From a virus (lineage: Duplodnaviria; Heunggongvirae; Uroviricota; Caudoviricetes), in the IMG/VR virus record IMGVR_UViG_2531839482_000004: a stretch of DNA of 34,661 bases; one strand, given 5' to 3'. The notes under the pieces are model-generated. The model did no database searches, was not told the DNA's origin, and worked only from the letters and a program-made list of their open reading frames with translations. Shown piece after piece: positions 6,939 through 33,577 of this stretch. Both the position numbers and the translations under genes were made by a program. How positions within the stretch are numbered: position 1 is the stretch's first letter; each line of letters opens with the position of its first letter.

Positions 6939-7106
6939 GAGGTTGCCCCGTATTCAGTGTCGCTGATTTGTATTGTCTGAAGTTGTTTTTACGTTAAGTT
7001 GATGCAGATCAATTAATACGATACCTGCGTCATAATTGATTATTTGACGTGGTTTGATGGCGTAGATGCACGTTGTGACATGTAGATGATAATTATTATC
7101 ATTTTT

Positions 7107-7846: not shown

Positions 7847-7872
<26 letters not shown>
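7327..7872 (+). CDS. nu1: terminase small subunit Nu1
   Basis: 181-aa translation matches recalled lambda gpNu1 except for one or two substitutions. Confidence 0.95.
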
Positions 7873-11553
<3,681 letters not shown>

Positions 11554-11573
<20 letters not shown>

Positions 11574-12873
11574 TCTCCCGCATATTGCCAGTATGGCCTT
11601 TAATGAGCCGCTGATGCTTGAACCCGCCTATGCGCGGGTTTTCTTTTGTGCGCTTGCAGGCCAGCTTGGGATCAGCCGCCTGACGGATGCGGTGTCCGGC
11701 GACAGCCTGACTGCCGGAGAGGCACCCGCGGCGCTGGCGTTATCCGTTGATGATGACGGACCACGACAGGCCCGCAGTTATCAGGTCATGAACGGCATCG
11801 CCGTGCTGCCGGTGTCCGGCACGCTGGTCAGCCGGACGCGGGCGCTGCAGCCGTATTCGGGGATGACCGGTTACAACGGCATTATCGCCCGTCTGCAACA
11901 GGCTGCCAGCGATCCGATGGTGGACGGCATTCTGCTGGATATGGACACACCGGGCGGGATGGTGGCGGGAGCATTTGACTGTGCTGACATCATCGCCCGT
12001 GTGCGAGACATAAAACCGGTATGGGCGCTGGCCAACGACATGAACTGCAGTGCAGGTCAGCTGCTTGCCAGCGCCGCCTCCCGGCGTCTGGTCACGCAGA
12101 CCGCCCGGACAGGCTCCATCGGCGTCATGATGGCTCACAGTAATTACGGTGCTGCGCTGGAGAAACAGGGCGTGGAAATCACGCTGATTTACAGCGGCAG
12201 CCATAAGGTGGATGGCAACCCCTACAGCCATCTACCGGATGATGTCCGGGAAACACTGCAGTCCCGGATGGATGCAACCCGCCGGATGTTTGCACAGAAG
12301 GTGTCGGCATATACCGGCCTGTCCGTGCAGGCTGTGCTGGATACCGAGGCTGCAGTGTACAGCGGTCAGGAGGCCATTGATGCCGGACTGGCTGATGAAC
12401 TTGTGAACAGTACCGATGCGATCACCGTCATGCGTGATGCACTGGATGCACGTAAATCCCGTCTCTCAGGAGGGCGAATGACCAAAGAGACTCAATCAAC
12501 AACTGTTTCAGCCACTGCTTCGCAGGCTGACGTTACTGGCGTGGTGCAAGCGACGGAGGGCGAGAACGCCAGCGCTGCGCAGCCGGACGTGAACGCGCAG
12601 ATCACCGCAGCGGTTGCGGCAGAAAACAGTCGCATTATGGGGATCCTCAACTGTGAGGAGGCTCACGGACGCGAAGAACAGGCATGCGTGCTGGCCGAAA
12701 CCCCCGGTATGACCGTGGAAACGGCCCGCCGTATTCTGGCCGCAGCACCACAGAGTGCACAGGCGCGCAGTGACACTGCGCTGGATCGTCTGATGCAGGG
12801 GGCACCGGCACCGCTGGCTGCAGGTAACCCGGCATCTGATGCCGTTAACGATTTGCTGAACACACCAGTGTAA
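11554..12873 (+). CDS. C: head maturation protease / scaffold gpC
   Basis: GTG start at 11554 overlapping the B 3' end; 439 aa (VTAELRNLPHIASMAFNEPLMLEPAYARVFF...), lambda gpC. Confidence 0.93.
12268..12873 (+). CDS. nu3: scaffolding protein Nu3 (in-frame internal start within C)
   Basis: ATG at 12268 in the C frame (MDATRRMFAQKVSAY...), same nested arrangement as lambda Nu3. Confidence 0.8.
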   Translation: MDATRRMFAQKVSAYTGLSVQAVLDTEAAVYSGQEAIDAGLADELVNSTDAITVMRDALDARKSRLSGGRMTKETQSTTVSATASQADVTGVVQATEGENASAAQPDVNAQITAAVAAENSRIMGILNCEEAHGREEQACVLAETPGMTVETARRILAAAPQSAQARSDTALDRLMQGAPAPLAAGNPASDAVNDLLNTPV

Positions 12874-12882
12874 GGGATGTTT

Positions 12883-13215
12883 ATGACGAGCAAAGAAACC
12901 TTTACCCATTACCAGCCGCTGGGCAACAGTGACCCGGCTCATACCGCAACCGCGCCCGGCGGGTTGAGTGCGAAAGCGCCTGCAATGACCCCGCTGATGC
13001 TGGACCCCTCCACCCGTAAGCTGGTTGCGTGGGATGGCACCACCGACGGTGCTGCCGTTGGCATTCTTGCAGTTGCTGCTGACCAGACCAGCACCACACT
13101 GACGTTCTACAAGTCCGGCACGTTCCGTTATGAGGATGTGCTCTGGCCGGAGGCTGCCAGCGACGAGACGAAAAAACGGACCGCGTTTGCCGGAACGGCA
13201 ATCAGCATCGTTTAA
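12883..13215 (+). CDS. D: head decoration protein gpD
   Basis: [41 protein letters not shown]..., 110 aa, lambda gpD. Confidence 0.95.
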
Positions 13216-13270: not shown

Positions 13271-13546
13271 ATGTCGATGTACACAACCGCCCAGCTGCTG
13301 GCGGCAAATGAGCAGAAATTTAAGTTTGATCCGCTGTTTCTGCGTCTCTTTTTCCGTGAGAGCTATCCCTTCACCACGGAGAAAGTCTATCTCTCACAAA
13401 TTCCTGGACTGGTAAACATGGCGCTGTACGTTTCGCCAATTGTTTCCGGTGAGGTTATCCGTTCCCGTGGCGGCTCCACCTCTGAATTTACGCCGGGTTA
13501 TGTCAAGCCGAAGCACTTAGCATGGCTTTCTGAGGCTTTCGTGTAG
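13271..13546 (+). pseudogene. E: major capsid protein gpE, N-terminal fragment (codons 1-82) interrupted by island insertion
   Basis: MSMYTTAQLLAANEQKFKFDPLFLRLFFRESYPF...TPGYVKPKH matches lambda gpE 1-82, then reads into island DNA (LAWLSEAFV*) and stops at 13546. Confidence 0.92.
13506..13515 (+). repeat. attL core AGCCGAAGCA (left island junction inside E)
   Basis: Identical 10-mer occurs at 24486-24495 at the other junction; sequence outside the pair is contiguous lambda E. Confidence 0.75.
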
Positions 13547-13678
13547 TTGCTGGTTTTTACACTTAATCTTTTGATAATAAAGAATAAGTTTATCTGGCGC
13601 TTTCACTGAATTTTCCTCGTTATCTGTGTGTTGCAATCATCTCTGTATTGCAGCTTGTATTGCTTTTTGGGGCTAAAA

Positions 13679-14914
13679 ATGGCTGGCGAGAACAAACTGA
13701 GCGACAAAGCGCTTAAAGGATATCTGGGGAAACCCAGAGAAAAGCAGATCACCATTGCTGATGGAAAGGGGCTTTCTATTCGTGTGAGTACTAAAGGGGC
13801 TGTGAGCTTTGTTTTCTTCTACAGGTTAGCAGGTGGCCGGGCTGCTCCGGTCTGGCTAACGTTGGGTAAATATCCTGATATGTCACTCAAACAGGCAAGG
13901 GAAAAGCGCGACGAGTGCCGTGGTTGGTTGGCTGACAAACGTGATCCGCGTATCCAGATTAAGATTCAGGCTGAAGAACGCTTAAAGCCGGTCACAGTGG
14001 AGGATGCACTAAATTACTGGTATGAAAATTACTGTAAGGTGCGTCGTAAAACTCATGCTGTAACGCTTGGCAGATTTCGAAAGCATATCTTTCCCTATAT
14101 CGGTCATTTGCCCGTAAATGACACTCACCTATATGAATGGCTGGACTGTTTTGACCGAATTAAACGTAATGCACCAGTTATGGCGGCGTATGTTTTTTCT
14201 GACACTAAATTAGCTCTTCGTTTTTGTCGGGTACGCCAGTACGCGACGTGTGATGCTTTAAAGGATTTGCGCATGAGTGATGTGGGGCAGATTGCAGGTA
14301 AGCGGGATCGGGTTCTGGATGAAGCCGAACTGGGCCAGCTCTGGAAGGCAATTTTTGTCGAGCCTGATTTAAAACTAATGTCTGAATACACGCGAAAAAT
14401 GTTTGTGCTTTGTACAGTATTTGGATGTCGAATGAGTGAAGCCCGATTATCTGAATGGAGTGAATGGGATCTCGAAAGTTGGGTTTGGACTGTACCAAAA
14501 GATCACTCAAAAACTGGTGTTGAAATCGTCAGACCAGTACCTGAAATTCTACGACAGTGGGTAACGGATGTTCACGAAGAGACAAAACATACTGGTTATG
14601 TGCTGGGAAGTCTGCGAATTAGAGAAAGCGTAAGCAAGATTGGGGGGAAAATCGGTAAACGTTTGGGCCATGAAAAACAATGGTCACTACACGACCTTAG
14701 AAGAACGCTATCTACTCATCTAAGTGATCTCGGTGTTGAATTTTATGTAGTAGAACAACTGTTAGGCCATGCGCTACCTGGCGTGGCAGGGGTTTACAAC
14801 AGGAGTACGTTTATGGCTAAAAAACTGGATGCTCTGGAACTCTGGACTACATATCTCAATAGCATCGCAGCTGCTGATTCAAAAGTGACAATCCTCAAAC
14901 AAAAGGCTGGTTAA
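13679..14914 (+). CDS. int: tyrosine integrase, P4-type with N-terminal arm-binding domain
   Basis: N-terminus LSDKALKGYLGKPREKQITIADGKGLSIRVS...LGKYPDMSLKQAREKRDE (DUF4102-like); C-terminal catalytic region with HDLRRT and LGH...GVY motifs; first gene inside the left junction. Confidence 0.88.
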   Translation: MAGENKLSDKALKGYLGKPREKQITIADGKGLSIRVSTKGAVSFVFFYRLAGGRAAPVWLTLGKYPDMSLKQAREKRDECRGWLADKRDPRIQIKIQAEERLKPVTVEDALNYWYENYCKVRRKTHAVTLGRFRKHIFPYIGHLPVNDTHLYEWLDCFDRIKRNAPVMAAYVFSDTKLALRFCRVRQYATCDALKDLRMSDVGQIAGKRDRVLDEAELGQLWKAIFVEPDLKLMSEYTRKMFVLCTVFGCRMSEARLSEWSEWDLESWVWTVPKDHSKTGVEIVRPVPEILRQWVTDVHEETKHTGYVLGSLRIRESVSKIGGKIGKRLGHEKQWSLHDLRRTLSTHLSDLGVEFYVVEQLLGHALPGVAGVYNRSTFMAKKLDALELWTTYLNSIAAADSKVTILKQKAG

Positions 14915-14915
14915 C

Positions 14916-15143
14916 ATGAAAAAAATGGCAATTGTTGATAAAAAGGGTCTGGAGTACATTCCTAACATTGACCGAATGATCCGTGAGAAAGAATGTCGGG
15001 AGCTAACCACTCTTGCGAACAGCACACGCTGGAAGCTGGAGAAGGAAGGAAAATTTCCTAAGCGGATCAAGATTGGCGCTACTGCGGTAGCTTATCGTCT
15101 CTCCGAAGTTCAGGCATGGATTAAGGGAGAATGGAGTAATTAA
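14916..15143 (+). CDS. alpA: AlpA-family HTH regulator / excisionase-like protein
   Basis: 75 aa; ATG overlaps int stop; ...IKIGATAVAYRLSEVQAWIKGE resembles the AlpA HTH pattern; position immediately after int as in E. coli PICIs and P4-like elements. Confidence 0.75.
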   Translation: MKKMAIVDKKGLEYIPNIDRMIREKECRELTTLANSTRWKLEKEGKFPKRIKIGATAVAYRLSEVQAWIKGEWSN

Positions 15144-15161
15144 ATAATAAGGTATTTCGAT

Positions 15162-15983
15162 ATGACAATGTGTGTTATTTGGAAGTCAGTTGATGGAACT
15201 ATTTATGCCGCCACAGATTCTCGACTGAGCTTTGAAGAAAAAAAGTTAGATCGTTGCGTTAAAATATCCCGAATCACATGTCTTTTACATGAGCCTAGTG
15301 ATGCAGTAGATACAAGTAAGATACTTGTTGATAAGCGTGAGATTGCTACATTATTCTGTGGAGGCTTTACAAATGCCTATATCATCAAGGAGAGCCTTAC
15401 TGAGATTTTAAATAAAATAGTTCTCATGAGGGAATACTCCGGCGTGCCCTTTTCGGAAATTATAGATATAGCGTTTTCCATTTATGAAGATACATCAAGA
15501 GATATGTTTGCATCATTAATGGACCAACGATTTGGATGTGTTTTTTACATGATAAGTTACTGCCCTGTATATAAGGAAATGCAAGCATTTAAATTTGAAT
15601 TCAAAATAAATGAAAACGGTATTAACTATTATAAATCTAAACTTTTTGAAGATCGTAACTATGAGGTTAATGGAAGTGGGGTGAGGTACTTGGAACAAAA
15701 TCATCGTATTGAAGATCTAGTTAAAGAAGCTTATCAGAAGAATAAATACACACCACTTCTAGATATACTTGAGTCCGTAATTAATGATGACGACTGTGAC
15801 TCTGTTGGAGGTGCAATGCAATACATTTCATGTAATAAAGATAGACTAAAATTGTGTTGTCATATGTTATTTGAAGAAAATAATCATAAGTATATGAAAG
15901 CTGGGGTGGACTTAAATGAACTCAATGAGAAGTTTATACCTTCTGGTTTGTTTTTTGAGACAGATGCAATCATCAAAAGATAA
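15162..15983 (+). CDS. hypothetical protein, AT-rich cargo gene (possible Ntn-hydrolase-like fold)
   Basis: 273-aa ORF with markedly lower GC than flanks; N-terminus MTMCVIWKSVDGTIYAATDSRL loosely resembles the proteasome/HslV-type N-terminal nucleophile region, with Cys where HslV has Thr. Similarity is weak and unverified. Confidence 0.5.
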   Translation: MTMCVIWKSVDGTIYAATDSRLSFEEKKLDRCVKISRITCLLHEPSDAVDTSKILVDKREIATLFCGGFTNAYIIKESLTEILNKIVLMREYSGVPFSEIIDIAFSIYEDTSRDMFASLMDQRFGCVFYMISYCPVYKEMQAFKFEFKINENGINYYKSKLFEDRNYEVNGSGVRYLEQNHRIEDLVKEAYQKNKYTPLLDILESVINDDDCDSVGGAMQYISCNKDRLKLCCHMLFEENNHKYMKAGVDLNELNEKFIPSGLFFETDAIIKR

Positions 15984-16292
15984 ACGATAACCGACTTTGA
16001 TTGTGATAATTTTATCAAGATTATGATGAATGCTGCAGTATATCTAACATGCTGCAGTTAACTCAATTTGTATTATCGCTAATATTTTTAATAACAAGGA
16101 TGTTTATTGCTTTTTTATTTGAGAGTGAACGTCTAACCATTGTTGTTCTTAGTTCTCATGGAGAGATTGGAGCTTAAAATACGCAATGTTTTGAAATCAG
16201 CGCAACTATATTCCGTAATTGTTCTTTGTCGTTCTTGCGTGGCACGGTGATACACCTCTCATGTCGGTTGTTTTTTTGAACGCAGAAACATA

Positions 16293-16320
16293 AAACAAAG
16301 GCGACCGGGATGGTCGCCAG
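16293..16320 (-). terminator. rho-independent terminator of the leftward island operon
   Basis: ggcgaccgggatggtcgcc hairpin; on the minus strand it is followed by tttgtttt, downstream of the 16387 stop. Confidence 0.5.
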
Positions 16321-16386
16321 TGGCATAACACTAAAATTGAGCGTATTCAGAATACCAAGTGTCGGCTGGTGGACAATGGAATCAGT

Positions 16387-16743
16387 TCAATATTTAGGTG
16401 GTTCAACAAGAGCGTTTATCATTGCTCTCAAATTATCGCGAACACTTATCCAAGTCTGTTCTGCTCGTTCTAACTCATTAGTGTACAGCTTTAATGTTTT
16501 ATCTATGCCATATGTGGCTATTAAATTTATAGCTTCTTGTAACTTTTCGGGATTATTCCTTCTTGGGGGAGTGAATATACCGCGGATTTTTCCGGTAATT
16601 AAAGCTTTACGGTGTCTACATAGAATACCTTTACTTCCTGCTGGACAATTACAAGTCATGATTAGCGAGCCAGAATCGTTTGATACAGTGACTATGTATA
16701 CATCCAAACTACTGCTACTTGTTGCGAAGAATTCGTATTTCAT
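16387..16743 (-). CDS. SWIM-type zinc-finger protein, hypothetical
   Basis: 118-aa ORF with CxC-x7-CxH motif (TCNCPAGSKGILCRH); AAGGAG 8 nt upstream of ATG 16743; preferred over the overlapping plus-strand ORF 16310-16750. Confidence 0.6.
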   Translation of the reverse strand: MKYEFFATSSSSLDVYIVTVSNDSGSLIMTCNCPAGSKGILCRHRKALITGKIRGIFTPPRRNNPEKLQEAINLIATYGIDKTLKLYTNELERAEQTWISVRDNLRAMINALVEPPKY

Positions 16744-16770
16744 GTGTTAGCTCCTTGACTTCAATTATTC

Positions 16771-16965
16771 TTATCCTTTTGGTTCAATACCGCGCCGTAG
16801 CAGCTCTTTGCGCCCTAACTCTTTAAGCCAGTTGGCAAGGCTTACCCCATCGTTACTGGCTTCGTTATCAAACTGCTCCTTCAATTCAGGAACTATGCGC
16901 ATATGGAACGGTGGGGCCTTTCCTGTGCCTTTTTGTTTTTTATCGCGCTTAATAACCGTTGACAT
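16771..16965 (-). CDS. small ribbon-helix-helix-like DNA-binding protein (candidate island regulator)
   Basis: 64 aa; ...FHMRIVPELKEQFDNEASNDGVSLANWLKELGRKEL has a beta-strand/helix/helix pattern like Arc/MetJ-type proteins; start codon abuts a palindromic operator-like site. Confidence 0.55.
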   Translation of the reverse strand: MSTVIKRDKKQKGTGKAPPFHMRIVPELKEQFDNEASNDGVSLANWLKELGRKELLRRGIEPKG

Positions 16966-17026
16966 GTGTACACCTATAGCGTTATGTTTTTATTCGATAG
17001 GTGTACACCTTAACATGTGTGCATTT
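16959..17026. promoter_or_regulatory. divergent control region with inverted repeats (operator candidate)
   Basis: GTGTACACCTAT (16966-16977) and its exact reverse complement ATAGGTGTACAC (16997-17008), 19-bp spacer; related ACATGTGT boxes at 16962 and 17014; TTGACA at 16959-16964. Confidence 0.5.
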
Positions 17027-17300
17027 AAAAACGCAACGCCCCGCAGTGCGGGAACACATGCAGGGCGTCTAACCACCAACGATAGCAACAGTATCGAGGT
17101 AGCTATGAGAAATCATCCCACACACCCGCAAGGGCGGGACTCGCACAACCTGAATAAATTCACTTGGCGCTTTATCGCCCTGAGTGCGGCTAAACCGCGC
17201 ATGCTTACCATCGTGGTCACCAGCGAGCAGGAAGACCGCCAGCAATCCCCAACTGGCTGCGTGATGATATTCGCCGCCCGTATTCGTCAGGAGGTGTGCC

Positions 17301-17525
17301 ATGAATGATCTTTATTTTAAAGTGCTGACACATGCTGAAAACGCGCTCGTTTGTGGCAAAAATATGCGAGAAATCTTATCAACCTGGCTTGATGGGACAA
17401 CAAATGCGGAACACGATGAACGGGATGCTAATTTAGCTGGAGCGTTAATTACGTTACTTGATCCTGTCATCAAAGAGCTGGATGAAGCTATAAAAATACA
17501 CGACCAGAGCTATACCGGAGAATAA
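17301..17525 (+). CDS. hypothetical protein
   Basis: 74-aa ORF, AGGAGG 8 nt upstream of ATG; first gene of the rightward operon leading to the primase. Confidence 0.6.
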   Translation: MNDLYFKVLTHAENALVCGKNMREILSTWLDGTTNAEHDERDANLAGALITLLDPVIKELDEAIKIHDQSYTGE

Positions 17526-17528
17526 AAA

Positions 17529-17816
17529 ATGAAAAATAAATTTTCTGGCTTTATTGCCAGCGGTCAAACTCATTCAAAAATCAGCCTTGGGGATATTTTC
17601 AAAGACAGCTATGGCTATCGGGTAAAGATTATTTCGGTTGATGATCGTCGTGTCTCTTATTTGCGTGATGGTTATGATTTTGAATGTGTTATGCCGCGTC
17701 AGCAGTTCGAAAGAGATTTCATTCTGGTAAAAAATTGCAAGACAGATAATCAGAGGCGTGCCGCAGGCTATATCCGTAAAATTCGGGCAATGTTAGTTGC
17801 CGGAGGTAACAAATGA
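17529..17816 (+). CDS. hypothetical protein
   Basis: 95-aa ORF, GGAGA upstream; tightly coupled to the primase gene (ATGA overlap). Confidence 0.6.
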   Translation: MKNKFSGFIASGQTHSKISLGDIFKDSYGYRVKIISVDDRRVSYLRDGYDFECVMPRQQFERDFILVKNCKTDNQRRAAGYIRKIRAMLVAGGNK

Positions 17817-19633
17817 AACGTGCTCCGAACTTAAAATACCAACCGCGCGACAAAATGACGGAAGTCATCATTTTTGCTGGCAGTGATGCCTGGAGCCATG
17901 CAAAAGAATGGAATGAATGGGCAGGTAAGCATATTGCAGCAGATGATACACCACCAGTCATTCTGGGTACGGAACAACTGGAAAACCTGGATGATATGCA
18001 AATTATCGATGAAGGCCGTCATTATGTGCGTGTTTATCGTGCCGGAAAGATTGCAGAGAAAAGTCTGACGAAGGTTGCGACATTACTTGCTATTGCAGGC
18101 GTAAAGGAAGCACGTTGTTACCGTAGCTTTGTTGATCGAGAGCCTGAAGACTGGACTCCGCGCCTTGTCGGCCTAAAAGCTGAAGCGGAGCATGGGGAAA
18201 GTCTGGTGATTGAACTGCCAGTGAAGAAGGCAGAGCGCAAAAATGACGAGCGTGCTTCATCTTTGGCGTTGAATCAGATGGGGGCCAGCCAGCGCGGTGA
18301 AGTTCTCCTTGCACATTACGGCGGTGAACTGGCAATCAATGCCGACTCTGACACCGTTCATCATTACAACGGCGTTGTATGGGAGCCGGTTCAGGATAAA
18401 GAGTTACAGCGTGCTATGGCGCAGATTTTCATTGATGCGGAGATCAGCTATTCGCAGAACGCTATTAAATCGGCGGTAGATACCATGAAGTTAAGTTTGC
18501 CTGTAATGGGGAATACAGCCCGTAACCTGATTGGATTCAGTAACGGGGTATTTGATACCAGAACTGGTAATTTTCGGGAGCATAACAAAAACGACTGGTT
18601 GTTAATTGCCAGTGAATTACCTTTCAGCCCACCAGCAGAGGGGGAAACGCTGGCAACACATGCGCCGAATTTCTGGAAGTGGTTGCGCCGTTCGGTGGCT
18701 GAGAATGACCGCAAGGCAGATCGCGTACTGGCGGCATTATTCATGGTGCTGGCGAACCGGTACGACTGGCAGTTATTCATTGAGGTAACAGGGCCGGGGG
18801 GAAGTGGTAAAAGTGTGATGGCGGAGATTTGCACCATGCTGGCGGGTAAGGCTAATACAGTATCAGCAAGCATGAAGGCGCTGGAAGATGCAAGGGAACG
18901 TGCGTTAGTGGTTGGCTTTTCGCTGATTATCATGCCGGATATGACCCGCTACGCTGGTGATGGGGCAGGGATTAAGGCCATTACAGGCGGTGACAAGGTG
19001 GCAATTGACCCGAAACACAAAGCCCCCTATTCAACGCGTATTCCGGCAGTAGTGCTGGCGGTTAACAATAACGCCATGTCATTCAGTGACCGCAGCGGGG
19101 GGATCTCACGTCGTCGGGTGATATTCAATTTTTCGGAAGTTGTACCGGAGAACGAACGCGATTCGATGCTGGCGGAAAAAATAGAAGGTGAGCTGGCGGT
19201 AGTGATTCGTCATCTGCTTACAAGGTTTGCTGATCAGGACGAAGCCAGACGCCTGTTATATGAGCAGCAGAAATCTGAAGAAGCACTGGCGATAAAGCGA
19301 GAGGGGGATTCGCTGGTGGACTTCTGCGGTTATCTCATGGCATCGGTAATGTGTGATGGCCTGTTAGTGGGTAATGCTGAAATTGTGCCATTCAGCCCAC
19401 GCAGGTATCTCTATCATGCCTATCTGGCTTATATGAGGGCACATGGGTTTGGTAAACCTGTAACACTGACGCGCTTCGGTAAAGATATGCCGGGGGCAAT
19501 GGCGGAATATGGCAGGGGGTATATGAAACGGAAAACGAAGCACGGTTTGCGTTCAAACGTGACACTGACGGAGGAATCAGAAGACTGGATGCCATCATGT
19601 GTATCGGTCACTAATGACGATAGCAAAAATTAA
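17813..19633 (+). CDS. primase/helicase-type replication protein (P4/PICI pri-rep family, D5-like NTPase)
   Basis: 606 aa; Walker A GPGGSGKS; overall architecture like P4-family primase C-terminal/helicase proteins; GGAGG RBS. Confidence 0.8.
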   Translation: MKRAPNLKYQPRDKMTEVIIFAGSDAWSHAKEWNEWAGKHIAADDTPPVILGTEQLENLDDMQIIDEGRHYVRVYRAGKIAEKSLTKVATLLAIAGVKEARCYRSFVDREPEDWTPRLVGLKAEAEHGESLVIELPVKKAERKNDERASSLALNQMGASQRGEVLLAHYGGELAINADSDTVHHYNGVVWEPVQDKELQRAMAQIFIDAEISYSQNAIKSAVDTMKLSLPVMGNTARNLIGFSNGVFDTRTGNFREHNKNDWLLIASELPFSPPAEGETLATHAPNFWKWLRRSVAENDRKADRVLAALFMVLANRYDWQLFIEVTGPGGSGKSVMAEICTMLAGKANTVSASMKALEDARERALVVGFSLIIMPDMTRYAGDGAGIKAITGGDKVAIDPKHKAPYSTRIPAVVLAVNNNAMSFSDRSGGISRRRVIFNFSEVVPENERDSMLAEKIEGELAVVIRHLLTRFADQDEARRLLYEQQKSEEALAIKREGDSLVDFCGYLMASVMCDGLLVGNAEIVPFSPRRYLYHAYLAYMRAHGFGKPVTLTRFGKDMPGAMAEYGRGYMKRKTKHGLRSNVTLTEESEDWMPSCVSVTNDDSKN

Positions 19634-19644
19634 ACTTATGGAAT

Positions 19645-19800
19645 AACTGTTCACCAAACTATTCACCGTTCACCTTTTTGATTATTTATTGAGCTTCAAG
19701 GGTGAACAGTGGTGAACAGTTGGTGAATAGTTTTTGTGAAACTGTTCACCCATTAACATTATGAATTAAAAGAGAAAATATCAAAAGGTGAACAGGTGAA
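19645..19800. repeat. iteron cluster, candidate island origin of replication
   Basis: About nine copies of GGTGAACAG / CTGTTCACC (and GGTGAAT variants) in both orientations around an AT-rich core (19756-19786), immediately downstream of the primase gene. Confidence 0.75.
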
Positions 19801-19846
19801 GGGTTAAAACGCAAAAATTTTAATTTACTGCTGTGAGATAAAGCCT

Positions 19847-20092
19847 ATGACAGCGAAGCACACAAAAAAATCACAATCGCACGCCCTTGATTTGACGGAA
19901 CACTGGTTAAGGGTGTCGATAAAAATCATCGACCGCAACGCCGGGGAAGGATACGCGAAAGCACATCCCGAACTGATTAGCGCATTCATGACAACGGCGG
20001 CTGCAAACTTTGCCACTCTGACCGAACGGGAGATTGCTGAAGCGGAGGAAGTGACAACAATCAATATTAAGTCCGGAGAGCAGGCAGCATGA
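19847..20092 (+). CDS. hypothetical protein
   Basis: 81-aa ORF between the origin and the ssb-like gene; no family recognised. Confidence 0.5.
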   Translation: MTAKHTKKSQSHALDLTEHWLRVSIKIIDRNAGEGYAKAHPELISAFMTTAAANFATLTEREIAEAEEVTTINIKSGEQAA

Positions 20093-20538
20093 CGGCGCAA
20101 ATATCAGTTTACGGGCGGTTGGTGGACGACCCGCAGACAAAACAGACCAGCAAGGGCACCCCCATGACGCTGGCGCGTATGGCGGTATCACTGCCCTGCA
20201 GTCAGTCGGATGACGGTCAGGCGACGATGTGGTTATCTGTCCTGGCGTTTGGCAGACAAGCCGACGCGCTGGCAAAGCATCACAAAGGCGAACTCCTGAG
20301 CGTGGCGGGTAATATGCAGGTGAGCCAGTGGACTGGACAGAACGGTGAAACGCGGCAGGGCTGGCAGGTTATCGCAGACAGCGTAATCAGTGCGCGAACG
20401 GTGCGACCGGGCGGCAAAAAAGGTCAACAGGGTCAGGCTACTGACGCACTGAACAGAGCAAAACAACAGGTAGATCAGCAAGGAAGCCATCCACCAGTGG
20501 GAGATAATGAGCAATGGGGAGATGATATTCCGTTTTAA
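20089..20538 (+). CDS. ssb: single-stranded DNA-binding protein (SSB-like)
   Basis: 149 aa; OB-fold-like N-terminus, Gly/Gln-rich linker, C-terminal acidic tail ...WGDDIPF as in SSB proteins. Confidence 0.75.
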   Translation: MTAQISVYGRLVDDPQTKQTSKGTPMTLARMAVSLPCSQSDDGQATMWLSVLAFGRQADALAKHHKGELLSVAGNMQVSQWTGQNGETRQGWQVIADSVISARTVRPGGKKGQQGQATDALNRAKQQVDQQGSHPPVGDNEQWGDDIPF

Positions 20539-20755
20539 ATATTGCCAATAAAAAAGGCCGGAAAAAAATAAATTTTCCGGCATGCTACATAAATCCCGAC
20601 CAAAGGGAGTGAAGATATTAACACTAATTATCCGCGCTGAAGTTGTTATCCCAAAACTTTATACAACATTGCACTCGGTTGCATGTATTCGCATGACAAA
20701 TATCGGTGATAGCATATATCCACAATTATTTTTAATGAATGCAAAGAGGATGCGT

Positions 20756-21796
20756 ATGGTTGATTTATATTCGCCTACCCAGCTTGTACAGGTGGTTAAT
20801 GCTGTAGATGTACAAAAACAACTAAATGCGTTGTTTACCAGTTTGTTTTTTACTCGCTCGGTAATGTTTGAATCGCGCGATATTATTCTTGATACAATCG
20901 ACGATCCAAATATCCCAATTGCAGCGTTTTGTTCTCCTATGGTGGGTAGTAAAGTTTCACGTGACGAAGGGTACGAATCAAAAACAATTCGTCCAGGCTA
21001 TATGAAGCCGAAAAGCAGCATTGATCCAAATAAGTTAGCTGTGCGCCCTGCTGGTGTATCACCTGAGCAATACAATGCTTTTGGAGCGCGTAATATTAAA
21101 GTTAAACAGGCGATTGTAAATCAGGCTAAATCTATTCGTGCACGTATTGAATGGCTTGCCGTTCAGGCAATCACAACGGGGAAAAATATCATTGAGGGCG
21201 ATGGTATTGAACGTTATGAGCTGGACTGGAATATTAAACCACAAAATATCATCACTCAGTCTGGCGGTGCTGAGTGGTCAGGTAAGGATAAAGAAACTTT
21301 TGATCCAAATGATGATATTGAGAGCTACGCAGAATTTAGTGAGGGCGTCACTAATATCATCATTATGGGCGGTAATGTATGGAAGAAATACCGTTCATTC
21401 AGAGCGATAAAAGAGGCTCTGGATACCCGTCGTGGTTCTAATTCCGAACTGGAAACGGCCCTTAAAGACCTTGGTGATTCGGTGAGTTTTAAAGGGTATA
21501 TGGGCGATGTTGCGATTGTTGTATACAGCGGGCGTTATACCGACGAGGACGGAACTGAAAAACATTTCCTTGATCCTGATTTGATGGTGCTTGGCAATAC
21601 GGCTCTTCAGGGGATTGTCGCCTATGGCGGTATTCAGGATCCGGAGCTAATCCGAATGGGGCTGACTAAAGCCGAACTTGCACCGAAAAACTATATTGTG
21701 CCTGGTGATCCGGCTATTGAATATGTGCAGACACATTCAGCACCACAGCCAATACCGGCCCGCATCAATCGTTTTGTTACCGTTCGCATTGGCTAA
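20756..21796 (+). CDS. island-encoded major capsid protein, divergent paralog of lambda gpE
   Basis: 346 aa; shares RPGYMKPK, NIITQSGGAEWSGKDKETFDPNDDIESYA, ALDTRRGSNSELETALKDLG, AIVVYSG, MVLGNT with helper gpE but is diverged throughout; AGAGGA RBS 6 nt before ATG 20756. Confidence 0.88.
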   Translation: MVDLYSPTQLVQVVNAVDVQKQLNALFTSLFFTRSVMFESRDIILDTIDDPNIPIAAFCSPMVGSKVSRDEGYESKTIRPGYMKPKSSIDPNKLAVRPAGVSPEQYNAFGARNIKVKQAIVNQAKSIRARIEWLAVQAITTGKNIIEGDGIERYELDWNIKPQNIITQSGGAEWSGKDKETFDPNDDIESYAEFSEGVTNIIIMGGNVWKKYRSFRAIKEALDTRRGSNSELETALKDLGDSVSFKGYMGDVAIVVYSGRYTDEDGTEKHFLDPDLMVLGNTALQGIVAYGGIQDPELIRMGLTKAELAPKNYIVPGDPAIEYVQTHSAPQPIPARINRFVTVRIG

Positions 21797-21805
21797 GGGG
21801 GAGCA

Positions 21806-22147
21806 ATGGCTACTCATTACACTGAACTCATGGCTGGCACTGAAGCACTGGTGACTACGCTGGGGATATTTTCAGCTAATAAAGGGGTAATTCCTGCATT
21901 TACGCCACTGATGCAGGAAGATGCAACAGGTGCACTGGTGGTATGGGATGGTTCGAGCGTAGGTAAAGCGGTTTATGTTTCCGCTGTACAAATCGACACC
22001 GCGAAAAAAACACAGGCTCAGGTCTATAAGACAGGTGTCTTAAATGTTGATGCTCTGAACTGGCCTGAGTCTGTAAAAGAACTGTCAGTAAAGATTGCAG
22101 CGTTTGTTGGCTCAGGTATTTCTGTTCAGCCGCTGGCTCGTGTGTAA
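21806..22147 (+). CDS. island-encoded decoration protein, divergent paralog of lambda gpD
   Basis: 113 aa; shares TPLM, LVVWDG, YKTGV, WPE, AAFVGSGISV with gpD; lies downstream of the capsid gene (order E-like then D-like, opposite to lambda). Confidence 0.75.
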   Translation: MATHYTELMAGTEALVTTLGIFSANKGVIPAFTPLMQEDATGALVVWDGSSVGKAVYVSAVQIDTAKKTQAQVYKTGVLNVDALNWPESVKELSVKIAAFVGSGISVQPLARV

Positions 22148-22158
22148 AGGGGGATACA

Positions 22159-22542
22159 ATGCAGAATGATTACAATGACCTTAAGCCAATTGCCGAAATG
22201 ATGTACCCGAATCCAGCTGTAGAGGAATTAAAAGCTATCGCTGACAAAATGTGTTTAAGCGAGCGCCTTGTTGATATGAATCAGGTGATGGAAATTACAA
22301 CCCTGAGTCGGCGTACACTGCTAAACCTTGAGGCTAGTGGAGAGTTCCCGGAGCGTGTGCAGGTTACGGAAGGGCGTAAGGCCTGGTATTTAAGTGAAGT
22401 GATCGACTGGATAAATAATATTCCTCGCGCTTCTGAATATTGCCGCGTACCTGTCCCAAAAAAGCCAGATGCGGCGCTATGCCTCAAGATTGAGCGTGTA
22501 CGCCGCAATGCACGGGATGGTCGCTATAAGCTGATTGGTTGA
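22159..22542 (+). CDS. AlpA/MerR-like HTH protein with N- and C-terminal extensions
   Basis: 127 aa; core MEITTLSRRTLLNLEASGEFPERVQVTEGRKAWYLSEVIDWI fits the AlpA-type HTH pattern. Confidence 0.6.
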   Translation: MQNDYNDLKPIAEMMYPNPAVEELKAIADKMCLSERLVDMNQVMEITTLSRRTLLNLEASGEFPERVQVTEGRKAWYLSEVIDWINNIPRASEYCRVPVPKKPDAALCLKIERVRRNARDGRYKLIG

Positions 22543-22565
22543 TGAAATTAGGGCCCGCTCTGGCT

Positions 22566-22787
22566 GGCGGGTCCTTTCCGGCGATCTGACAGGCTACGGG
22601 GCGTCAGGCGCGCAGTTTTTCGCTATTTGTGAAAATTTTCCTGTTTAAGGCGTTTCCGTTCTTCTTCGCCGTAACTTAATGTTTTTATTAAAAACACCCC
22701 CTAAAAAGAAAGGAAACGACAGGTGCTAAAAACAGGCTTTTTGGCCTCTGTCGTTTCCTTTCTCTGGTTTTGTCCGTGGAATGAACA
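22566..22787 (+). other. island cos site (cosQ and cosB conserved, cosN divergent)
   Basis: Aligns base-for-base with helper cos 7107-7326, but the cosN position reads GGGCGTCAGGCG (helper GGGCGGCGACCT), with further changes just downstream. Confidence 0.8.
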
Positions 22788-22853
22788 ATGGAAGCCAACA
22801 AAAAGCAGCTGGCTGACATTTTCGGTGCGAGTATCCGTACCATTCAGAACTAG
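22788..22853 (+). pseudogene. Nu1-paralog N-terminal segment ending in an in-frame amber codon (codon 22)
   Basis: MEANKKQLADIFGASIRTIQN then TAG where helper Nu1 has TGG (Trp). Confidence 0.7.
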
Positions 22854-22865
22854 CAGGAGCAGGGA

Positions 22866-23339
22866 ATGCCCGTTCTGCGAGGCGGTGGCAAGGGTAATGA
22901 GGTGCTTTATGACTCTGCCGCCGTCATAAAATGGTATGCCGAAAGGGATGCTGAAATTGAGAACGAAAAGCTGCGCCGGGAGGTTGAAGAACTGCGGCAG
23001 GCCAGCGAGGCAGATCTCCTGCCAGGGACTATTGAGTATGAACGCCATCGACTTACGCGTGCGCAGGCCGACGCACAGGAACTGAAGAATGCCAGCGAAA
23101 CAGGTGAGGTAATTGACACTGCATTTGCGACTTATGCTTTGTCGAAATTAACTGGGGAAGTTGGAGCAATCATTGATAGTCTTCCACTTGCGATCTGTCG
23201 ACAGTTTCCTGGCATGGAAAAACGGTATCAGGACTTCATTAAGATGGAGGTCAGTAAAGCATTTATTCGAGCTTACCAGATCTCAGATAACATTCCAGAT
23301 ATGGCTGAAAGGTATATCAAGGATAATCAGCGAAGTTAA
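22866..23339 (+). CDS. N-terminally truncated terminase small-subunit paralog (Nu1 residues 27-end; divergent C-terminal domain)
   Basis: Starts at the codon equivalent to Nu1 Met27, where a GAA->GAG change creates a GGAG Shine-Dalgarno 6 nt upstream; first ~80 aa near-identical to Nu1, last ~75 aa replaced by AT-rich divergent sequence. Confidence 0.7.
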   Translation: MPVLRGGGKGNEVLYDSAAVIKWYAERDAEIENEKLRREVEELRQASEADLLPGTIEYERHRLTRAQADAQELKNASETGEVIDTAFATYALSKLTGEVGAIIDSLPLAICRQFPGMEKRYQDFIKMEVSKAFIRAYQISDNIPDMAERYIKDNQRS

Positions 23340-23445
23340 AACAAATGAAACCATAGGTAGGAAGAGTGCTTAGGTGGTTCTTTGTTGCTTAAAAGTCGCC
23401 AGTAAAACTGGCGATAGATTTTATTTGTCAAAAGCATTTGACCTT

Positions 23446-24351
23446 TTAAGGTAGTGGTACTATGGATATTTTTCTGTCGTTCCCAAATGAACTTTTAAAT
23501 AATTTCGCTCTTGGATACATCTTAACTAGTGATGCGACTTCATCGAACTCGCTGGCATCAAAAAGAGGACCAAGTATTACAGATTTTAACTCAAAAGGGT
23601 GAAATTTTAAGTCGCTATATTGACCAGTGCTATTTGGCCTAGCGTAGGTTGAAATTCTCCACTCTCTTTCATATGCCCATTCTTCTGTTTTTATGAATAT
23701 TATCTCATTATTGATATATTCAATTGACTTATTGTCTGGCATGAAAAGCAACTCGGCCATCCCTTCAGCAGTGTGAGTTAGAGGCATTTCATCTGTGTAT
23801 TTCATAGGTTTGGCTATTAACCAAGCGCTATCCAGAAAGTCTACACAATCAAATTCGATAACTATACCTTTATATTTATCGGCATAGTGATTCCACATAG
23901 GAGTGATTATAGGGCTCTCAGATAAACACAAAATCCTTCTGTTATTAAGCATTCCTCGCCAGACATCTTTCATTTCTTGTATTGCCGCAGGAGCGCCAAT
24001 CCCAACTGGTGGAATGTTTACCATTTCTTGAAATCTTTCAATTAATCCTGCGGGTATGCCTAAAGGAAATGACTTTTGGAAATCACTTAGCATTGTTCTA
24101 ATTCTAGGGTTTAAATTTTGTATGTCTTCTCTGGGGGTAATCAACTCCGCTATTAACTTGCGGGCTAAAGCTTTGCCAATATTAATTTCGTTAATACCAG
24201 GCATAACTTCTCTTGGAACATCAAAAGGGTCATTAAATAGGACCGGAGAACTCCATCTAAGGCTGCATGAATCAAGAACAATTTTCGCGGTATTCAACGA
24301 CATATACTTATAAAATGTTGAGCGTTCATGCATTCTGTTGGGTGAGCGCAT
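23446..24351 (-). CDS. hypothetical protein, DUF2971-like, AT-rich cargo gene
   Basis: 301 aa; N-terminal FYKYMSL...LRWSSPVLFNDPFD and WAYEREWRI motifs as recalled for DUF2971 proteins; low GC; GAGGA RBS; last gene before the right junction. Confidence 0.55.
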   Translation of the reverse strand: MRSPNRMHERSTFYKYMSLNTAKIVLDSCSLRWSSPVLFNDPFDVPREVMPGINEINIGKALARKLIAELITPREDIQNLNPRIRTMLSDFQKSFPLGIPAGLIERFQEMVNIPPVGIGAPAAIQEMKDVWRGMLNNRRILCLSESPIITPMWNHYADKYKGIVIEFDCVDFLDSAWLIAKPMKYTDEMPLTHTAEGMAELLFMPDNKSIEYINNEIIFIKTEEWAYEREWRISTYARPNSTGQYSDLKFHPFELKSVILGPLFDASEFDEVASLVKMYPRAKLFKSSFGNDRKISIVPLP

Positions 24352-24485
24352 AGATTCCTCTTGTTAAATGAGTGATGGTTTTCATCCATGTATTGCACGT
24401 TGTATTGCATTCAAGGATTTTCCATTTCAATTCTATAGCTAAAACGTAATCAAATCATTCACATCCTTTCATATTTGACTCATGT

Positions 24486-24495
24486 AGCCGAAGCA
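24486..24495 (+). repeat. attR core AGCCGAAGCA (right island junction)
   Basis: Identical to 13506-13515; E coding sequence resumes in frame immediately afterwards. Confidence 0.75.
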
Positions 24496-25276
24496 TGAGG
24501 TGAATCCGCAGATGACCCTGCGTCGCCTGCCGGATGAAGATCCGCAGAATCTGGCGGACCCGGCTTACCGCCGCCGTCGCATCATCCTGCAGAACATGCG
24601 TGACGAAGAGCTGGCCATTGCTCAGGTCGAAGAGATGCAGGCAGTTTCTGCCGTGCTCAAGGGCAAATACACCATGACCGGTGAAGCCTTCGATCCGGTT
24701 GAGGTGGATATGGGCCGCAGTGCGGCGAACAACATCACGCAGTCCGGCGGCACGGAGTGGAGCAAGCGTGACAAGTCCACGTATGACCCGACCGACGATA
24801 TCGAAGCCTACGCGCTGAACGCCAGCGGCGTGGTGAATATCATCGTGTTTGATCCGAAAGGCTGGGCGCTGTTCCGTTCCTTCAAAGCCGTCAAGGAGAA
24901 GCTGGATACCCGTCGCGGCTCTAATTCCGAGCTGGAGACAGCGGTAAAAGACCTGGGCGAAGCGGTGTCCTATAAGGGGATGTATGGCGATACGGCGATC
25001 GTCGTGTATTCCGGACAGTACGTGGAAAACGACGTCAAAAAGAACTTCCTGCCGGACAACACGATGGTGCTGGGGAACACTCAGGCACGCGGTCTGCGCA
25101 CCTATGGCTGCATTCAGGATGCGGACGCACAGCGCGAAGGTATTAACGCCTCTGCCCGCTACCCGAAAAACTGGGTGACCACCGGCGATCCGGCGCGTGA
25201 GTTCACCATGATTCAGTCAGCACCGCTGATGCTGCTGGCTGATCCTGATGCGTTCGTGTCCGTACAACTGGCGTAA
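24486..25276 (+). pseudogene. E: major capsid protein gpE, C-terminal fragment (codons ~80-341)
   Basis: ...KHEVNPQMTLRRLPDEDPQNLADPAYRRRRIILQNMRDEE... to ...FVSVQLA matches lambda gpE; preceded in frame by a TAG from island DNA. Confidence 0.92.
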
Positions 25277-25278: not shown

Positions 25279-25300
25279 ATGGCCCTTCGGGGCCATTTTC
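25279..25300 (+). terminator. stem-loop after E
   Basis: atggcccttcggggccat followed by tttctctc. Confidence 0.35.
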
Positions 25301-25317
25301 TCTCTGTGGAGGAGTCC

Positions 25318-25713
25318 ATGACGAAAGATGAACTGATTGCCCGTCTTCAGGTGCTGGGTGAGCAACTGAACCGTGATGTCAGCCTGACGGGGACGAAAGA
25401 AGAACTGGTGCTCCGTGTGGCAGAGCTGGAAGAGGAGCTTGATGACACGGATGACGCTGCCGGTCAGGACACATCTGTCAACCCGGAAAATGCGCTGACC
25501 GGACATGAAAATGAGGTGGTATCAGCGCAGCCGGATACCGTGATTGATACGGCTGCTCTGGTCACGGTCGTGGCACTGGTGACGCTGCATACTGATGCAC
25601 TTCACGCCACGCGGGATGAGCCTGTGGCATTTGTGCTGCCGGGAACGGCGTTTCGTGTCTCTGCCGGTGTGGCAGCCGAAATGACAGAACATGGCCTGGC
25701 CAGAATGCAATAA
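25318..25713 (+). CDS. FI: DNA-packaging protein gpFI
   Basis: MTKDELIARLQVLGEQLNRDVSLTGTKEEL..., lambda gpFI; GGAGG RBS. Confidence 0.93.
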   Translation: MTKDELIARLQVLGEQLNRDVSLTGTKEELVLRVAELEEELDDTDDAAGQDTSVNPENALTGHENEVVSAQPDTVIDTAALVTVVALVTLHTDALHATRDEPVAFVLPGTAFRVSAGVAAEMTEHGLARMQ

Positions 25714-25724
25714 CGGGAGGCGCT

Positions 25725-26078
25725 GTGGCTGATTCCGATAACCTGTTCGATGCTGCCATTGCCCGCGCCGATGAAACGATACGCGGGTACATGGGAACGT
25801 CAGCCACCATGACATCCGGTGAGCTGTCCGGTGCTGTGATACGTGGTGTTTTTGATGACCCTGAAAATATCAGCTATGCCGGACAGGGGGTGCGCGTTGA
25901 AGGCTCCAGCCCGTCCCTGTTTGTCCGGACTGATGATGTGCGGCAGCTGCGGCGTGGAGACACACTGACCATCGGCGAGGAAAACTTCTGGGTGGACCGG
26001 ATTTCGCCGGATGATGGCGGAAGCTGTCATCTCTGGCTTGGGCGTGGCGTGCCGCCTGCCGTTAACCGTCGCCGCTGA
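25725..26078 (+). CDS. FII: head-tail connector gpFII
   Basis: GTG start; 117 aa matching lambda gpFII. Confidence 0.93.
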   Translation: MADSDNLFDAAIARADETIRGYMGTSATMTSGELSGAVIRGVFDDPENISYAGQGVRVEGSSPSLFVRTDDVRQLRRGDTLTIGEENFWVDRISPDDGGSCHLWLGRGVPPAVNRRR

Positions 26079-26089
26079 AAGGGGGATGT

Positions 26090-26668
26090 ATGGCCATAAA
26101 AGGTCTTGAGCAGGCCGTTGAAAACCTCAGCCGTATCAGCAAAACGGCGGTGCCTGGTGCCGCCGCAATGGCCATTAACCGCGTTGCGTCATCCGCGATA
26201 TCGCAGTCTGCGTCACAGGTTGCCCGTGAGACAAAGGTACGCCGGAAACTGGTAAAGGAAAGGGCCAGGCTGAAAAGGGCCACGGTCAAAAATCCGCAGG
26301 CCAGAATCAGGGTTAACCGGGGGGATTTGCCCGTAATCAAGCTGGGTAACGCGCGGGTTGTCCTTTCCCGCCGCAGACGTCGTAAAAAGGGGCAGCGTTC
26401 ATCCCTGAAAGGTGGCGGCAGCGTGCTTGTGGTGGGAAACCGTCGTATTCCCGGCGCGTTTATTCAGCAACTGAAAAATGGCCGGTGGCATGTCATGCAG
26501 CGTGTGGCCGGGAAAAACCGTTACCCCATTGATGTGGTGAAAATCCCGATGGCGGTGCCGCTTACCACGGCGTTTAAACAGAATATTGAACGGATACGGC
26601 GTGAACGTCTTCCGAAAGAGCTGGGCTATGCGCTGCAGCATCAACTGAGAATGGTAATAAAGCGATGA
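26090..26668 (+). CDS. Z: tail completion protein gpZ
   Basis: 192 aa matching lambda gpZ. Confidence 0.93.
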   Translation: MAIKGLEQAVENLSRISKTAVPGAAAMAINRVASSAISQSASQVARETKVRRKLVKERARLKRATVKNPQARIRVNRGDLPVIKLGNARVVLSRRRRRKKGQRSSLKGGGSVLVVGNRRIPGAFIQQLKNGRWHVMQRVAGKNRYPIDVVKIPMAVPLTTAFKQNIERIRRERLPKELGYALQHQLRMVIKR

Positions 26669-27060
26669 AACATACTGAACTCCGTGCAGCCGTACTGGAT
26701 GCACTGGAGAAGCATGACACCGGGGCGACGCTTTTTGATGGTCGCCCCGCTGTTTTTGATGAGGCGGATTTTCCGGCAATTGCCGTTTATCTCACCGGCG
26801 CTGAATACACGGGCGAAGAGCTGGACAGTGATACCTGGCAGGCGGAGCTGCATATTGAAGTTTTCCTGCCTGCTCAGGTGCCGGATTCAGAGCTGGATTC
26901 GTGGATGGAGTCCCGGATTTATCCGGTGATGAGCGATGTCCCGGCACTGTCAGATTTGATCACCAGTATGGTGGCCAGTGGCTATGACTACCGGCGCGAC
27001 GATGATGCGGGCCTGTGGAGTTCAGCCGATCTGACTTATGTCATTACCTATGAAATGTGA
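26665..27060 (+). CDS. U: tail terminator protein gpU
   Basis: 131 aa matching lambda gpU. Confidence 0.93.
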
Positions 27061-27067
27061 GGACGAT

Positions 27068-27808
27068 ATGCCTGTACCAAATCCAGTAATGCCGGTGAAA
27101 GGGGCCGGGACCACACTGTGGGTTTATAAGGGGAACGGTGACCCTTATGCGAACCCGCTTTCAGACGTTGACTGGTCGCGTCTGGCTAAAGTTAAAGACC
27201 TGACGCCCGGCGAACTGACCGCTGAGTCCTATGACGACAGCTATCTCGATGATGAAGATGCGGACTGGACTGCGACCGGGCAGGGGCAGAAATCTGCCGG
27301 AGATACCAGCTTCACGCTGGCGTGGATGCCCGGAGAGCAGGGGCAGCAGGCGCTGCTGGCGTGGTTTAATGAAGGGGATACCCGTGCCTATAAAATCCGC
27401 TTCCCGAACGGCACGGTCGATGTGTTCCGCGGCTGGGTCAGCAGTATCGGTAAGGCGGTGACGGCGAAGGAAGTGATCACCCGCACGGTGAAAGTCACCA
27501 ACGTGAGACGTCCGTCGATGGCAGAAGATCGCAGCACGGTAACAGCGGCAACCGGCATGACCGTGACGCCTGCCAGCACTTCGGTGGTGAAAGGGCAGAG
27601 CACCACGCTGACCGTGGCATTCCAGCCGGAAGGCGCAACCGACAAGAGCTTCCGTGCGGTGTCTGCGGATAAAACAAAAGCCACCGTGTCGGTCAGTGGT
27701 ATGACCATCACCGTGAAAGGTGTTGCTGCAGGCAAGGTCAACATTCCGGTTGTATCCGGTAATGGTGAACTTGCTGTGGTTGCAGAAATCACCGTCACCG
27801 ACAGTTAA
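27068..27808 (+). CDS. V: major tail tube protein gpV
   Basis: [22 protein letters not shown]... 246 aa, lambda gpV with C-terminal Ig-like domain. Confidence 0.93.
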
Positions 27809-27823
27809 TCCGGAGAGTCAGCG

Positions 27824-32240: not shown

Positions 32241-32245
32241 ATCCC

Positions 32246-33558: not shown

Positions 33559-33577
33559 TGCAAAATGTTTTATGTGA

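Follow-up and report, generated by a model that had tools for sequence, protein, structure and literature searches.

A satellite island inside the major capsid gene of a lambdoid prophage and its probable place among the helper-embedded PICIs

The DNA analysed here, IMG/VR virus record IMGVR_UViG_2531839482_000004, is a stretch of 34,661 nt (the window, whose numbering is used for all coordinates) from a lambdoid prophage in which the major capsid gene E is split by foreign DNA. The insert (13516-24495, 10,980 bp) is very probably a helper-embedded phage-inducible chromosomal island (HE-PICI) of the group E:Phage_cap_E:80, the founder of which is Eco567.11capE. A study by Tommasini, Mageeney, and Williams (NAR Genom Bioinform 2023; PMC10111431) described this founder, 11capE of Escherichia coli NRG857c, at the site E:Phage_cap_E:80 as an element with a 10-bp identity block and a capsid gene of its own, and counted 201 elements at this site among 491 HE-PICIs over 14 late-gene sites. 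As the element was published in 2023, the window holds a further example of what was already catalogued and is no new find. A preliminary description of the same DNA, made from its sequence, had proposed a satellite with a combination of features not known to it from any described family. A PICI-type satellite does lie inside the helper capsid gene and is co-oriented with it, and the claim of novelty is withdrawn in view of 11capE. A satellite in this position keeps its helper's capsid gene broken until it leaves, and is itself replicated and transcribed together with the helper.

The split capsid gene and the identity of the insert

The helper gene E starts at 13271 (+ strand) and reads MSMYTT...TPGYVKPKH before its frame enters foreign DNA. 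The 5' fragment, codons 1-82 (13271-13515), reads on into the island until a stop at 13546, and the 3' fragment (24496-25276, +), EVNPQMTLRR...VSVQLA, takes up the gene at the final base of codon 82 and continues as far as its stop codon. A 10-bp direct repeat, AGCCGAAGCA, is present at both breakpoints, at 13506-13515 and 24486-24495. When 13516-24495 is removed in silico, a 1026-nt in-frame open reading frame (ORF) of 341 aa results, and the restored E aligns with the lambda major capsid protein (PDB 7vi9) from residues 1-341 to 1-341 without a gap (E = 1e-224). The GC content is about 0.58-0.60 in the flanks and 0.34-0.51 in the insert. The tyrosine integrase of the island recombined its attP with E at a 10-bp core inside codons 79-82, and the crossover occurred somewhere within these codons; of the earlier statement that about 10.98 kb splits E after codon 82, the split and its length stand and the position was given too strictly. 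The island is found between D and FI and is co-oriented with the helper late operon, with int, alpA, and the primase gene on the late-operon strand. Because the 5' fragment of E runs into a stop, attP supplies no replacement for E. The proposal that the attachment site lies in a structural gene of the helper, whose E is blocked as long as the island is integrated, is borne out.

The attachment sites are those of the published group. The identity block of the group is agccgaagca or aacccaagca and is found near capsid codon 80, and the attP of its members brings no replacement sequence (PMC10111431). The attL copy of AGCCGAAGCA (13506-13515, +), the crossover region, equals the agccgaagca block of the E_Phage_cap_E_80 elements in the supplement of that study, and the attR copy (24486-24495, +) has a flank identical to 19 entries of its supplementary file 6. 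In the window, the block and the flanks of the two att sites agree with the supplementary alignments, e.g. Eco112.11.E_Phage_cap_E_80, and the attR-proximal island sequence is that of the 19 entries. A doubled motif, TGTATTGC, is present in both arms of attP: the P'-arm copy (13642-13664, +) begins 131.5 bp downstream of the centre of the core, and the P-arm copy (24387-24409, +) has its end 81.5 bp upstream of that centre. These spacings agree with those published for tgTGTATTGCantgTGTATTGCa, the doubled motif specific to HE-PICIs, for which the distances from the attP centre are given as 81 +/- 2 bp on the upstream side and 132 +/- 2 bp on the downstream side (PMC10111431).

The body of the island is also that of 11capE. 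In a BLAST comparison with NRG857c (NC_017634, 1198800-1211200), int-alpA and the replication zone were each 98.6% identical, and the stretch from the SSB gene through the capsid gene E', the decoration gene D', and a second AlpA-family gene to cos was 99.2% identical; about 7.4 kb of the insert has 98.6-99.2% identity to the founder. Judged by the DNA identity of 98.6% over int-alpA, the integrase is a member of the HE-PICI clade. The zones follow the published order: Integration (int, alpA), dynamic, Replication (primase, SSB), and Late (E', D', cos, and the Nu1 paralog). The features that define Gram-negative PICIs were found as well, namely a length within 10-20 kb, int, alpA, pri-rep with an adjacent origin, cos, and the lack of most virion genes. 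The two islands share the target gene, the codon, and the orientation, and are of similar size (11.08 kb for 11capE, CP001855.1 1199333-1210409, and 10.98 kb here). They also share the type of 10-bp core, which in the window is the agccgaagca variant that occurs many times in the supplement of PMC10111431, and the doubled motif at equal spacing. Additionally, the protein accessions of E', D', the AlpA-like protein, and the 81-aa and 74-aa proteins of 11capE are also annotated in a sister copy of the island, H1, from strain Res13-Lact-PEB20-37-A. The differences from 11capE are confined to two cargo regions, window 15123-17150 and 22823-24474. The first of these, for which BLAST gave no match in 11capE, encodes a 273-aa protein of unknown function and a SWIM protein in the window. 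At the right end the window carries a DUF2971 gene and a full-length, amber-bearing Nu1 paralog, whereas 11capE, which was stated to lack terS (PMC10111431), has a 64-aa Nu1 fragment together with HEPN and DUF262 genes.

The same arrangement recurs in other genomes. A 140-bp probe across the attL junction was searched against 5,426 complete E. coli genomes, with matches of at least 80% coverage counted, and the same junction was found in 173 of them. The locus also occurs uninterrupted, a form that the preliminary description had advised looking for: a reconstructed empty-site probe, i.e. an intact attB, matched 3,104 of the 5,426 genomes, several at 100% identity. It follows from the two counts that the split is neither chance nor an assembly artefact. 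Near-full-length copies of the island are carried by unrelated strains whose sources are pigs, humans, frogs, swans, and seawater. Among matches limited to the island and its junctions, the underlying annotated features include three 'major capsid protein' entries, which at the sister locus are the two halves of the helper E and the capsid gene of the island itself. A search of a phage collection returned no deposited phage genome with the island, its matches being confined to the flanks in E and Nu1 and to a distant primase, and a search of a plasmid collection returned nothing relevant, its one good match being a mislabelled chromosome.

Genes and packaging signals of the island and its helper

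The integration zone encodes a tyrosine integrase of the HE-PICI clade (13679-14914, +; Pfam Arm-DNA-bind_3 4e-19, Phage_integrase 1e-16), followed by AlpA, predicted to act as excisionase and regulator (14916-15143, +; Pfam Phage_AlpA 6e-15). The integrase start at 13679 agrees with RefSeq, and the longest ORF begins at 13628. The preliminary description had called this integrase P4-type; a broad clade kinship with the P4 integrase stands, and the resemblance goes no further, with no Psu, Sid, or Delta match among the island proteins scanned. The variable 'dynamic' zone that follows (15162-17308, mixed strands) encodes the 273-aa protein (15162-15983, +; phrog_16034), which has matches in neither Pfam nor PADLOC and lies in a stretch of very low GC content (about 0.34-0.36), a SWIM zinc-finger protein (16387-16743, -) with a weak PADLOC match to PDC-S62 (1e-4), an Arc-like repressor (16771-16965, -), and also an Icd-like protein (16895-17308, +). 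The window copy of this zone gave no match to a Bro-N domain, though PMC10111431 names the zone Bro. An Rfam scan of the island at E <= 0.1, aimed at P4-type C4/isrK immunity RNAs, returned no match, and consensus scans for promoters and terminators gave counts at the level of shuffled sequence.

The replication zone (17301-20538, +) is 98.6% identical to that of 11capE, and 99.2% identical from the SSB gene on. It begins with the 74-aa protein, followed by a DUF4222 protein (17529-17816, +), a primase/helicase of the P4 family (17813-19633, +) with D5_N, DUF5906, and Pox_D5 domains and a TIGR01613 match, the 81-aa protein (19847-20092, +), and the SSB protein (20089-20538, +). Just 3' of the primase gene lies a putative origin (19645-19802) made of GGTGAACAG(T) iterons in direct and inverted copies, and in Gram-negative PICIs the origin is located downstream of pri (PMC10111431). 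The sister copy of the island is 99.5% identical to the window copy, and the sole difference in length between the two is in the iteron region, where window 19645-19667 corresponds to 21266-21320 of the sister stretch. This difference of ~74 bp points to a difference in the copy number of the origin repeats.

The late zone opens with E', an E-like major capsid gene (20756-21796, +; Pfam Phage_cap_E 3e-41), whose start was placed according to RefSeq WP_000228111.1, annotated in both the sister copy and 11capE. It is followed by D', a D-like head decoration gene (21806-22147, +; Pfam HDPD 4e-15). E' is 41% identical to the helper E and 55% identical to the capsid protein (PDB 3BQW) of the model Gram-negative PICI EcCICFT073, and D' is 38% identical to the helper D and 54% identical to the D-like protein of EcCICFT073. 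Since both are closer to EcCICFT073 than to the helper, E' and D' resemble a module of the PICI lineage more than a recent copy of the genes of the helper. The shell genes of the island had been noticed in the preliminary description, and the domain matches agree with it. It had also held that classical PICIs are without such genes, which is mistaken: of the 29 reference Gram-negative PICIs, 21 have a major capsid gene, which is dispensable for transfer (PMC10111431), and EcCICFT073 has adjacent E-like and D-like genes. D' is followed by a second AlpA-family helix-turn-helix protein of 127 aa (22159-22542, +; Pfam Phage_AlpA 7.6e-9; phrog_2790; PDB 8c3t, AlpA). This protein has no similarity to either EcCICFT073 protein at the syntenic position, RppA included, and a search of the PDB with it returned AlpA alone. 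No TerL, portal, protease, or tail gene was found in the ORF list of the insert, as had been claimed.

The helper cos was read by the general layout of lambda cos, which is also given in PMC6739421. It comprises cosQ, cosN, and cosB (7108-7326, +), with a 12-nt cohesive end, GGGCGGCGACCT, at 7138-7149, and the cos site of the island (22569-22787, +) is homologous to it by alignment. The island cosQ and cosB are near-identical to those of the helper, and the island cosB is of helper type. At the position of the cosN overhang the island has GGGCGTCAGGCG (22599-22610), which is identical to the helper sequence at 7 of 12 positions. Because the overhangs differ, the DNA ends of satellite and helper would not be mutually cohesive. 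Together with the domain matches, the cos alignment confirms the satellite-type inventory reported earlier (int, alpA, primase with iterons, SSB, cos, and a small-terminase paralog).

From cos into Nu1 (22567-23095), the island shares 95% identity with the helper cos-Nu1 stretch in the sister prophage. The Nu1 (TerS) paralog (22788-23339, +; Pfam Phage_Nu1 3e-64) contains an in-frame amber at codon 22 (TAG, 22851-22853), where the helper Nu1 and the sister copy have TGG. An ATG at 22866 is a possible restart that would give a 157-aa product without the first 26 residues, the start of the winged-helix DNA-binding domain. The 66-bp amber allele recurs without change in 17 complete E. coli genomes of varied sources, and this recurrence marks it as an inherited lineage allele and not a sequencing error. 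The intact paralog of the sister copy is 73% identical to the helper Nu1 overall; residues 1-74 are identical, and the differences lie mostly from about residue 103 on. In 11capE the corresponding ORF (9479-9673 of the NRG857c stretch) encodes 64 aa, the N-terminal DNA-binding domain of Nu1, where the window has a full-length paralog. A lone DNA-binding domain of TerS is similar to the N-terminus of Rpp, which mimics TerS, and might interfere with the helper TerS. Rpp, through which the helper TerS is turned toward a cosB specific to the PICI, is found in many, not all, E. coli PICIs, and an island without it may still be a PICI. A tblastn search with RppA of EcCICFT073 against the whole window gave nothing better than E = 0.08, and as the island has no Rpp homologue, any packaging bias toward the satellite must differ from that of EcCICFT073. 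The amber-bearing Nu1 paralog, the divergent cosN overhang, and the missing Rpp homologue fit the published picture of a dynamic late zone and late-gene capture, and the classification of the island is unchanged by them.

The right end of the island carries cargo. A DUF2971 protein encoded there (23446-24351, -; Pfam DUF2971 1e-9) is a candidate anti-phage defence protein, and among the cargo genes it gave the single solid PADLOC match, to the candidate system PDC-S31 (2.5e-32). The HEPN and DUF262 genes of 11capE occupy the same slot, which suggests that the slot is a hotspot for defence genes.

The rest of the window belongs to the helper. The genes upstream of the split, all on the + strand, are Nu1 (7327-7872; Pfam Phage_Nu1), A (7847-9772; GpA_ATPase, GpA_nuclease), W (9769-9975), B (9972-11573; Phage_portal_2), C/Nu3 (11419-12873; Peptidase_S49), and D (12877-13215; HDPD), in parallel with the RefSeq annotation of the sister locus. 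Downstream of E the late operon continues with genes for head completion and the tail, namely FI, FII, Z, U, V, G, T, H, M, L, K, I, and the beginning of J (25279-34661, +), which were assigned from the ORF layout parallel to the sister RefSeq annotation. The helper also carries two morons. An OmpC/NmpC-type porin (3215-4297, -; Porin_1 3.6e-152) is encoded between Q and the holin, and a Bor/Iss-like lipoprotein (6088-6429, -) after the lysis cassette, an arrangement that is shared with a lambdoid prophage of CFT073.

Weighing of other explanations and a proposed life cycle

Several other accounts of the insert have to be set against an HE-PICI. The split could be an artefact, such as a chimeric contig join, or a one-off off-target insertion of an island that normally resides elsewhere, for example in a tRNA gene. 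The preliminary description had itself named such a join, or an element of a tRNA site, as what would overturn it, and there is precedent for stray insertion: a sister group with a nearly identical integrase is found in tRNA-Phe genes, and 28 off-target HE-PICI events have been recorded (PMC10111431). The identical attL in 173 independent complete genomes, flanks and a core as published for 201 elements at this very site, the clean direct repeat that bounds the insert, and the perfect restoration of E on its removal make this account extremely improbable and set the earlier concern aside. It is just as hard to believe that the island should be counted among the P4-like satellites or the capsid-forming PICIs (cf-PICIs) and not among the classical Gram-negative PICIs. 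The TIGR01613 primase, the Icd-like protein, AlpA, an integrase of the broad PICI/P4 clade, and the presence of its own capsid and decoration genes would speak for this. The helper is lambdoid and not P2-like, however, the island proteins scanned gave no match to Psu, Sid, or Delta, and the island is without the portal, protease, head-tail connector, and TerL of a cf-PICI; its shell genes are of the lambda E/D type and homologous to those of the classical PICI EcCICFT073. An insertion of the intron or intein kind was rejected alongside these accounts.

The island could also be an immobile, decayed remnant in a dead prophage, with the split E a pseudogene and the island genes relics. The amber codon in the Nu1 paralog is what a decaying element might show, many helpers of HE-PICIs look truncated, and NRG857c yielded no virions (PMC10111431). 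Decay is nevertheless very unlikely. The ORFs of int, alpA, primase, SSB, E', and D' are intact, as are the att arms and the doubled motifs, and the helper late operon is open from Nu1 through the tail genes. Additionally, the founder excises precisely, and near-identical copies are found in unrelated strains and hosts.

There are points that weigh against the preferred explanation. Virions of neither 11capE nor its helper were recovered by the authors of PMC10111431, and for this reason we still infer transfer and dependence on the helper. The amber codon in the Nu1 paralog, together with the 5 of 12 positions at which cosN differs, means that efficient cutting by the helper terminase is not assured. 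The part played by E' and D' is conjectural, and they may serve as a back-up or alternative shell protein. The helper early region and the ends of the prophage lie outside the window, and the helper may or may not be intact.

For an HE-PICI of this group, the founder provides the outline of a life cycle. Upon SOS induction with mitomycin C, the composite of helper and 11capE leaves the chromosome and replicates as a unit, and the excision of the satellite comes later, being first detected at 2 h (PMC10111431). Among the composite circles that had been excised, 42-98% were without 11capE at 2-3 h, and by quantitative PCR and deep sequencing this excision was found to be precise, giving the predicted attB and attP and regenerating an intact E (PMC10111431). 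With its intact att arms, doubled motifs, and int-alpA, and with the exact restoration of E in silico, the island in the window has an anatomy that allows the excision pathway of the founder. In line with PMC10111431 and with lambda biology, Q-antiterminated late transcription of the helper would run from D and the 5' fragment of E into int-alpA, so that the late phase of the helper would time both the excision of the satellite and the expression of its late genes. An integrated satellite would block the helper E, and the yield of the helper would be delayed or reduced. The freed circle would replicate from its own primase and iteron origin, after which the helper terminase would cut the island cos and the DNA would be packaged into particles with the portal and tail of the helper. 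Concatemers of about four units would probably be packaged, as 4 x 10.98 kb gives 43.9 kb, about 90% of the lambda genome. This length fits the phage-length concatemers in which an E. coli model PICI was reported to be packaged (PMC10111431). The two variable regions would carry cargo, here the candidate defence gene DUF2971.

A bolder proposal concerns the late zone. E' and D', the helper-type cosQ and cosB, the altered cosN, and the Nu1 paralog with its diverged, gpA-facing C-terminal half could form an uncharacterised hijack of packaging and assembly that is distinct from Rpp. We regard this as a doubtful suggestion, and one recurrent allele of the Nu1 paralog on which it draws also loses the start of the DNA-binding domain. 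If it were true, the shell proteins of the satellite would assemble on the portal, protease, and scaffold of the helper while the helper E stays split, and satellite-specific cohesive ends with a modified TerS would bias the terminase toward satellite DNA.

Comparison with known satellites

The island shares with the cf-PICIs a major capsid protein encoded by the satellite. The cf-PICIs encode the whole set for head and packaging, i.e. capsid, protease, portal, connectors, TerS, and TerL, and the helper gives tails only (10.1101/2022.09.08.507074). In contrast, the island has no portal, protease, or TerL gene and carries just the E-like, D-like, and nonsense-bearing Nu1-like genes. The likeness to P4 lies in the P4-family primase/helicase, AlpA, the Icd-like protein, and an integrase of the same broad clade (PMC10111431). 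P4 differs in that its helper is P2-like and its target is a tRNA gene, whereas the helper of the island is lambdoid and its target is a phage late gene. No C4/isrK RNA was detected in the island, and no match to the Psu, Sid, or Delta families was found among the island proteins scanned with Pfam, PHROGs, and NCBIfam.

Among Gram-negative PICIs the model is EcCICFT073 (Fillol-Salom et al. 2018, 2019; PMC6739421). It is chromosomal and located next to phoQ in CFT073, whereas the island resides inside its helper. EcCICFT073 uses RppA and a non-phage cosB (PMC6739421), and the island, which is without an Rpp homologue, has a helper-type cosB and a Nu1 paralog instead. The right end of EcCICFT073 (NC_004431, 1385000-1388654) encodes in turn a 'major capsid protein' (PDB 3BQW), a 'head decoration protein', a 137-aa protein of unknown function, RppA, which was identified via PDB 6hlk, and a 93-aa protein of unknown function. 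A blastn comparison with window 7102-7182 also showed lambda-cos-like sequences flanking rppA in CFT073, in opposite orientations. In both elements int, alpA, primase, and late zone follow one another in this order, both have a lambdoid helper, EcCICFT073 is packaged by cos as the island would be, and both carry adjacent E-like and D-like genes, those of EcCICFT073 being 55% and 54% identical to the genes of the island.

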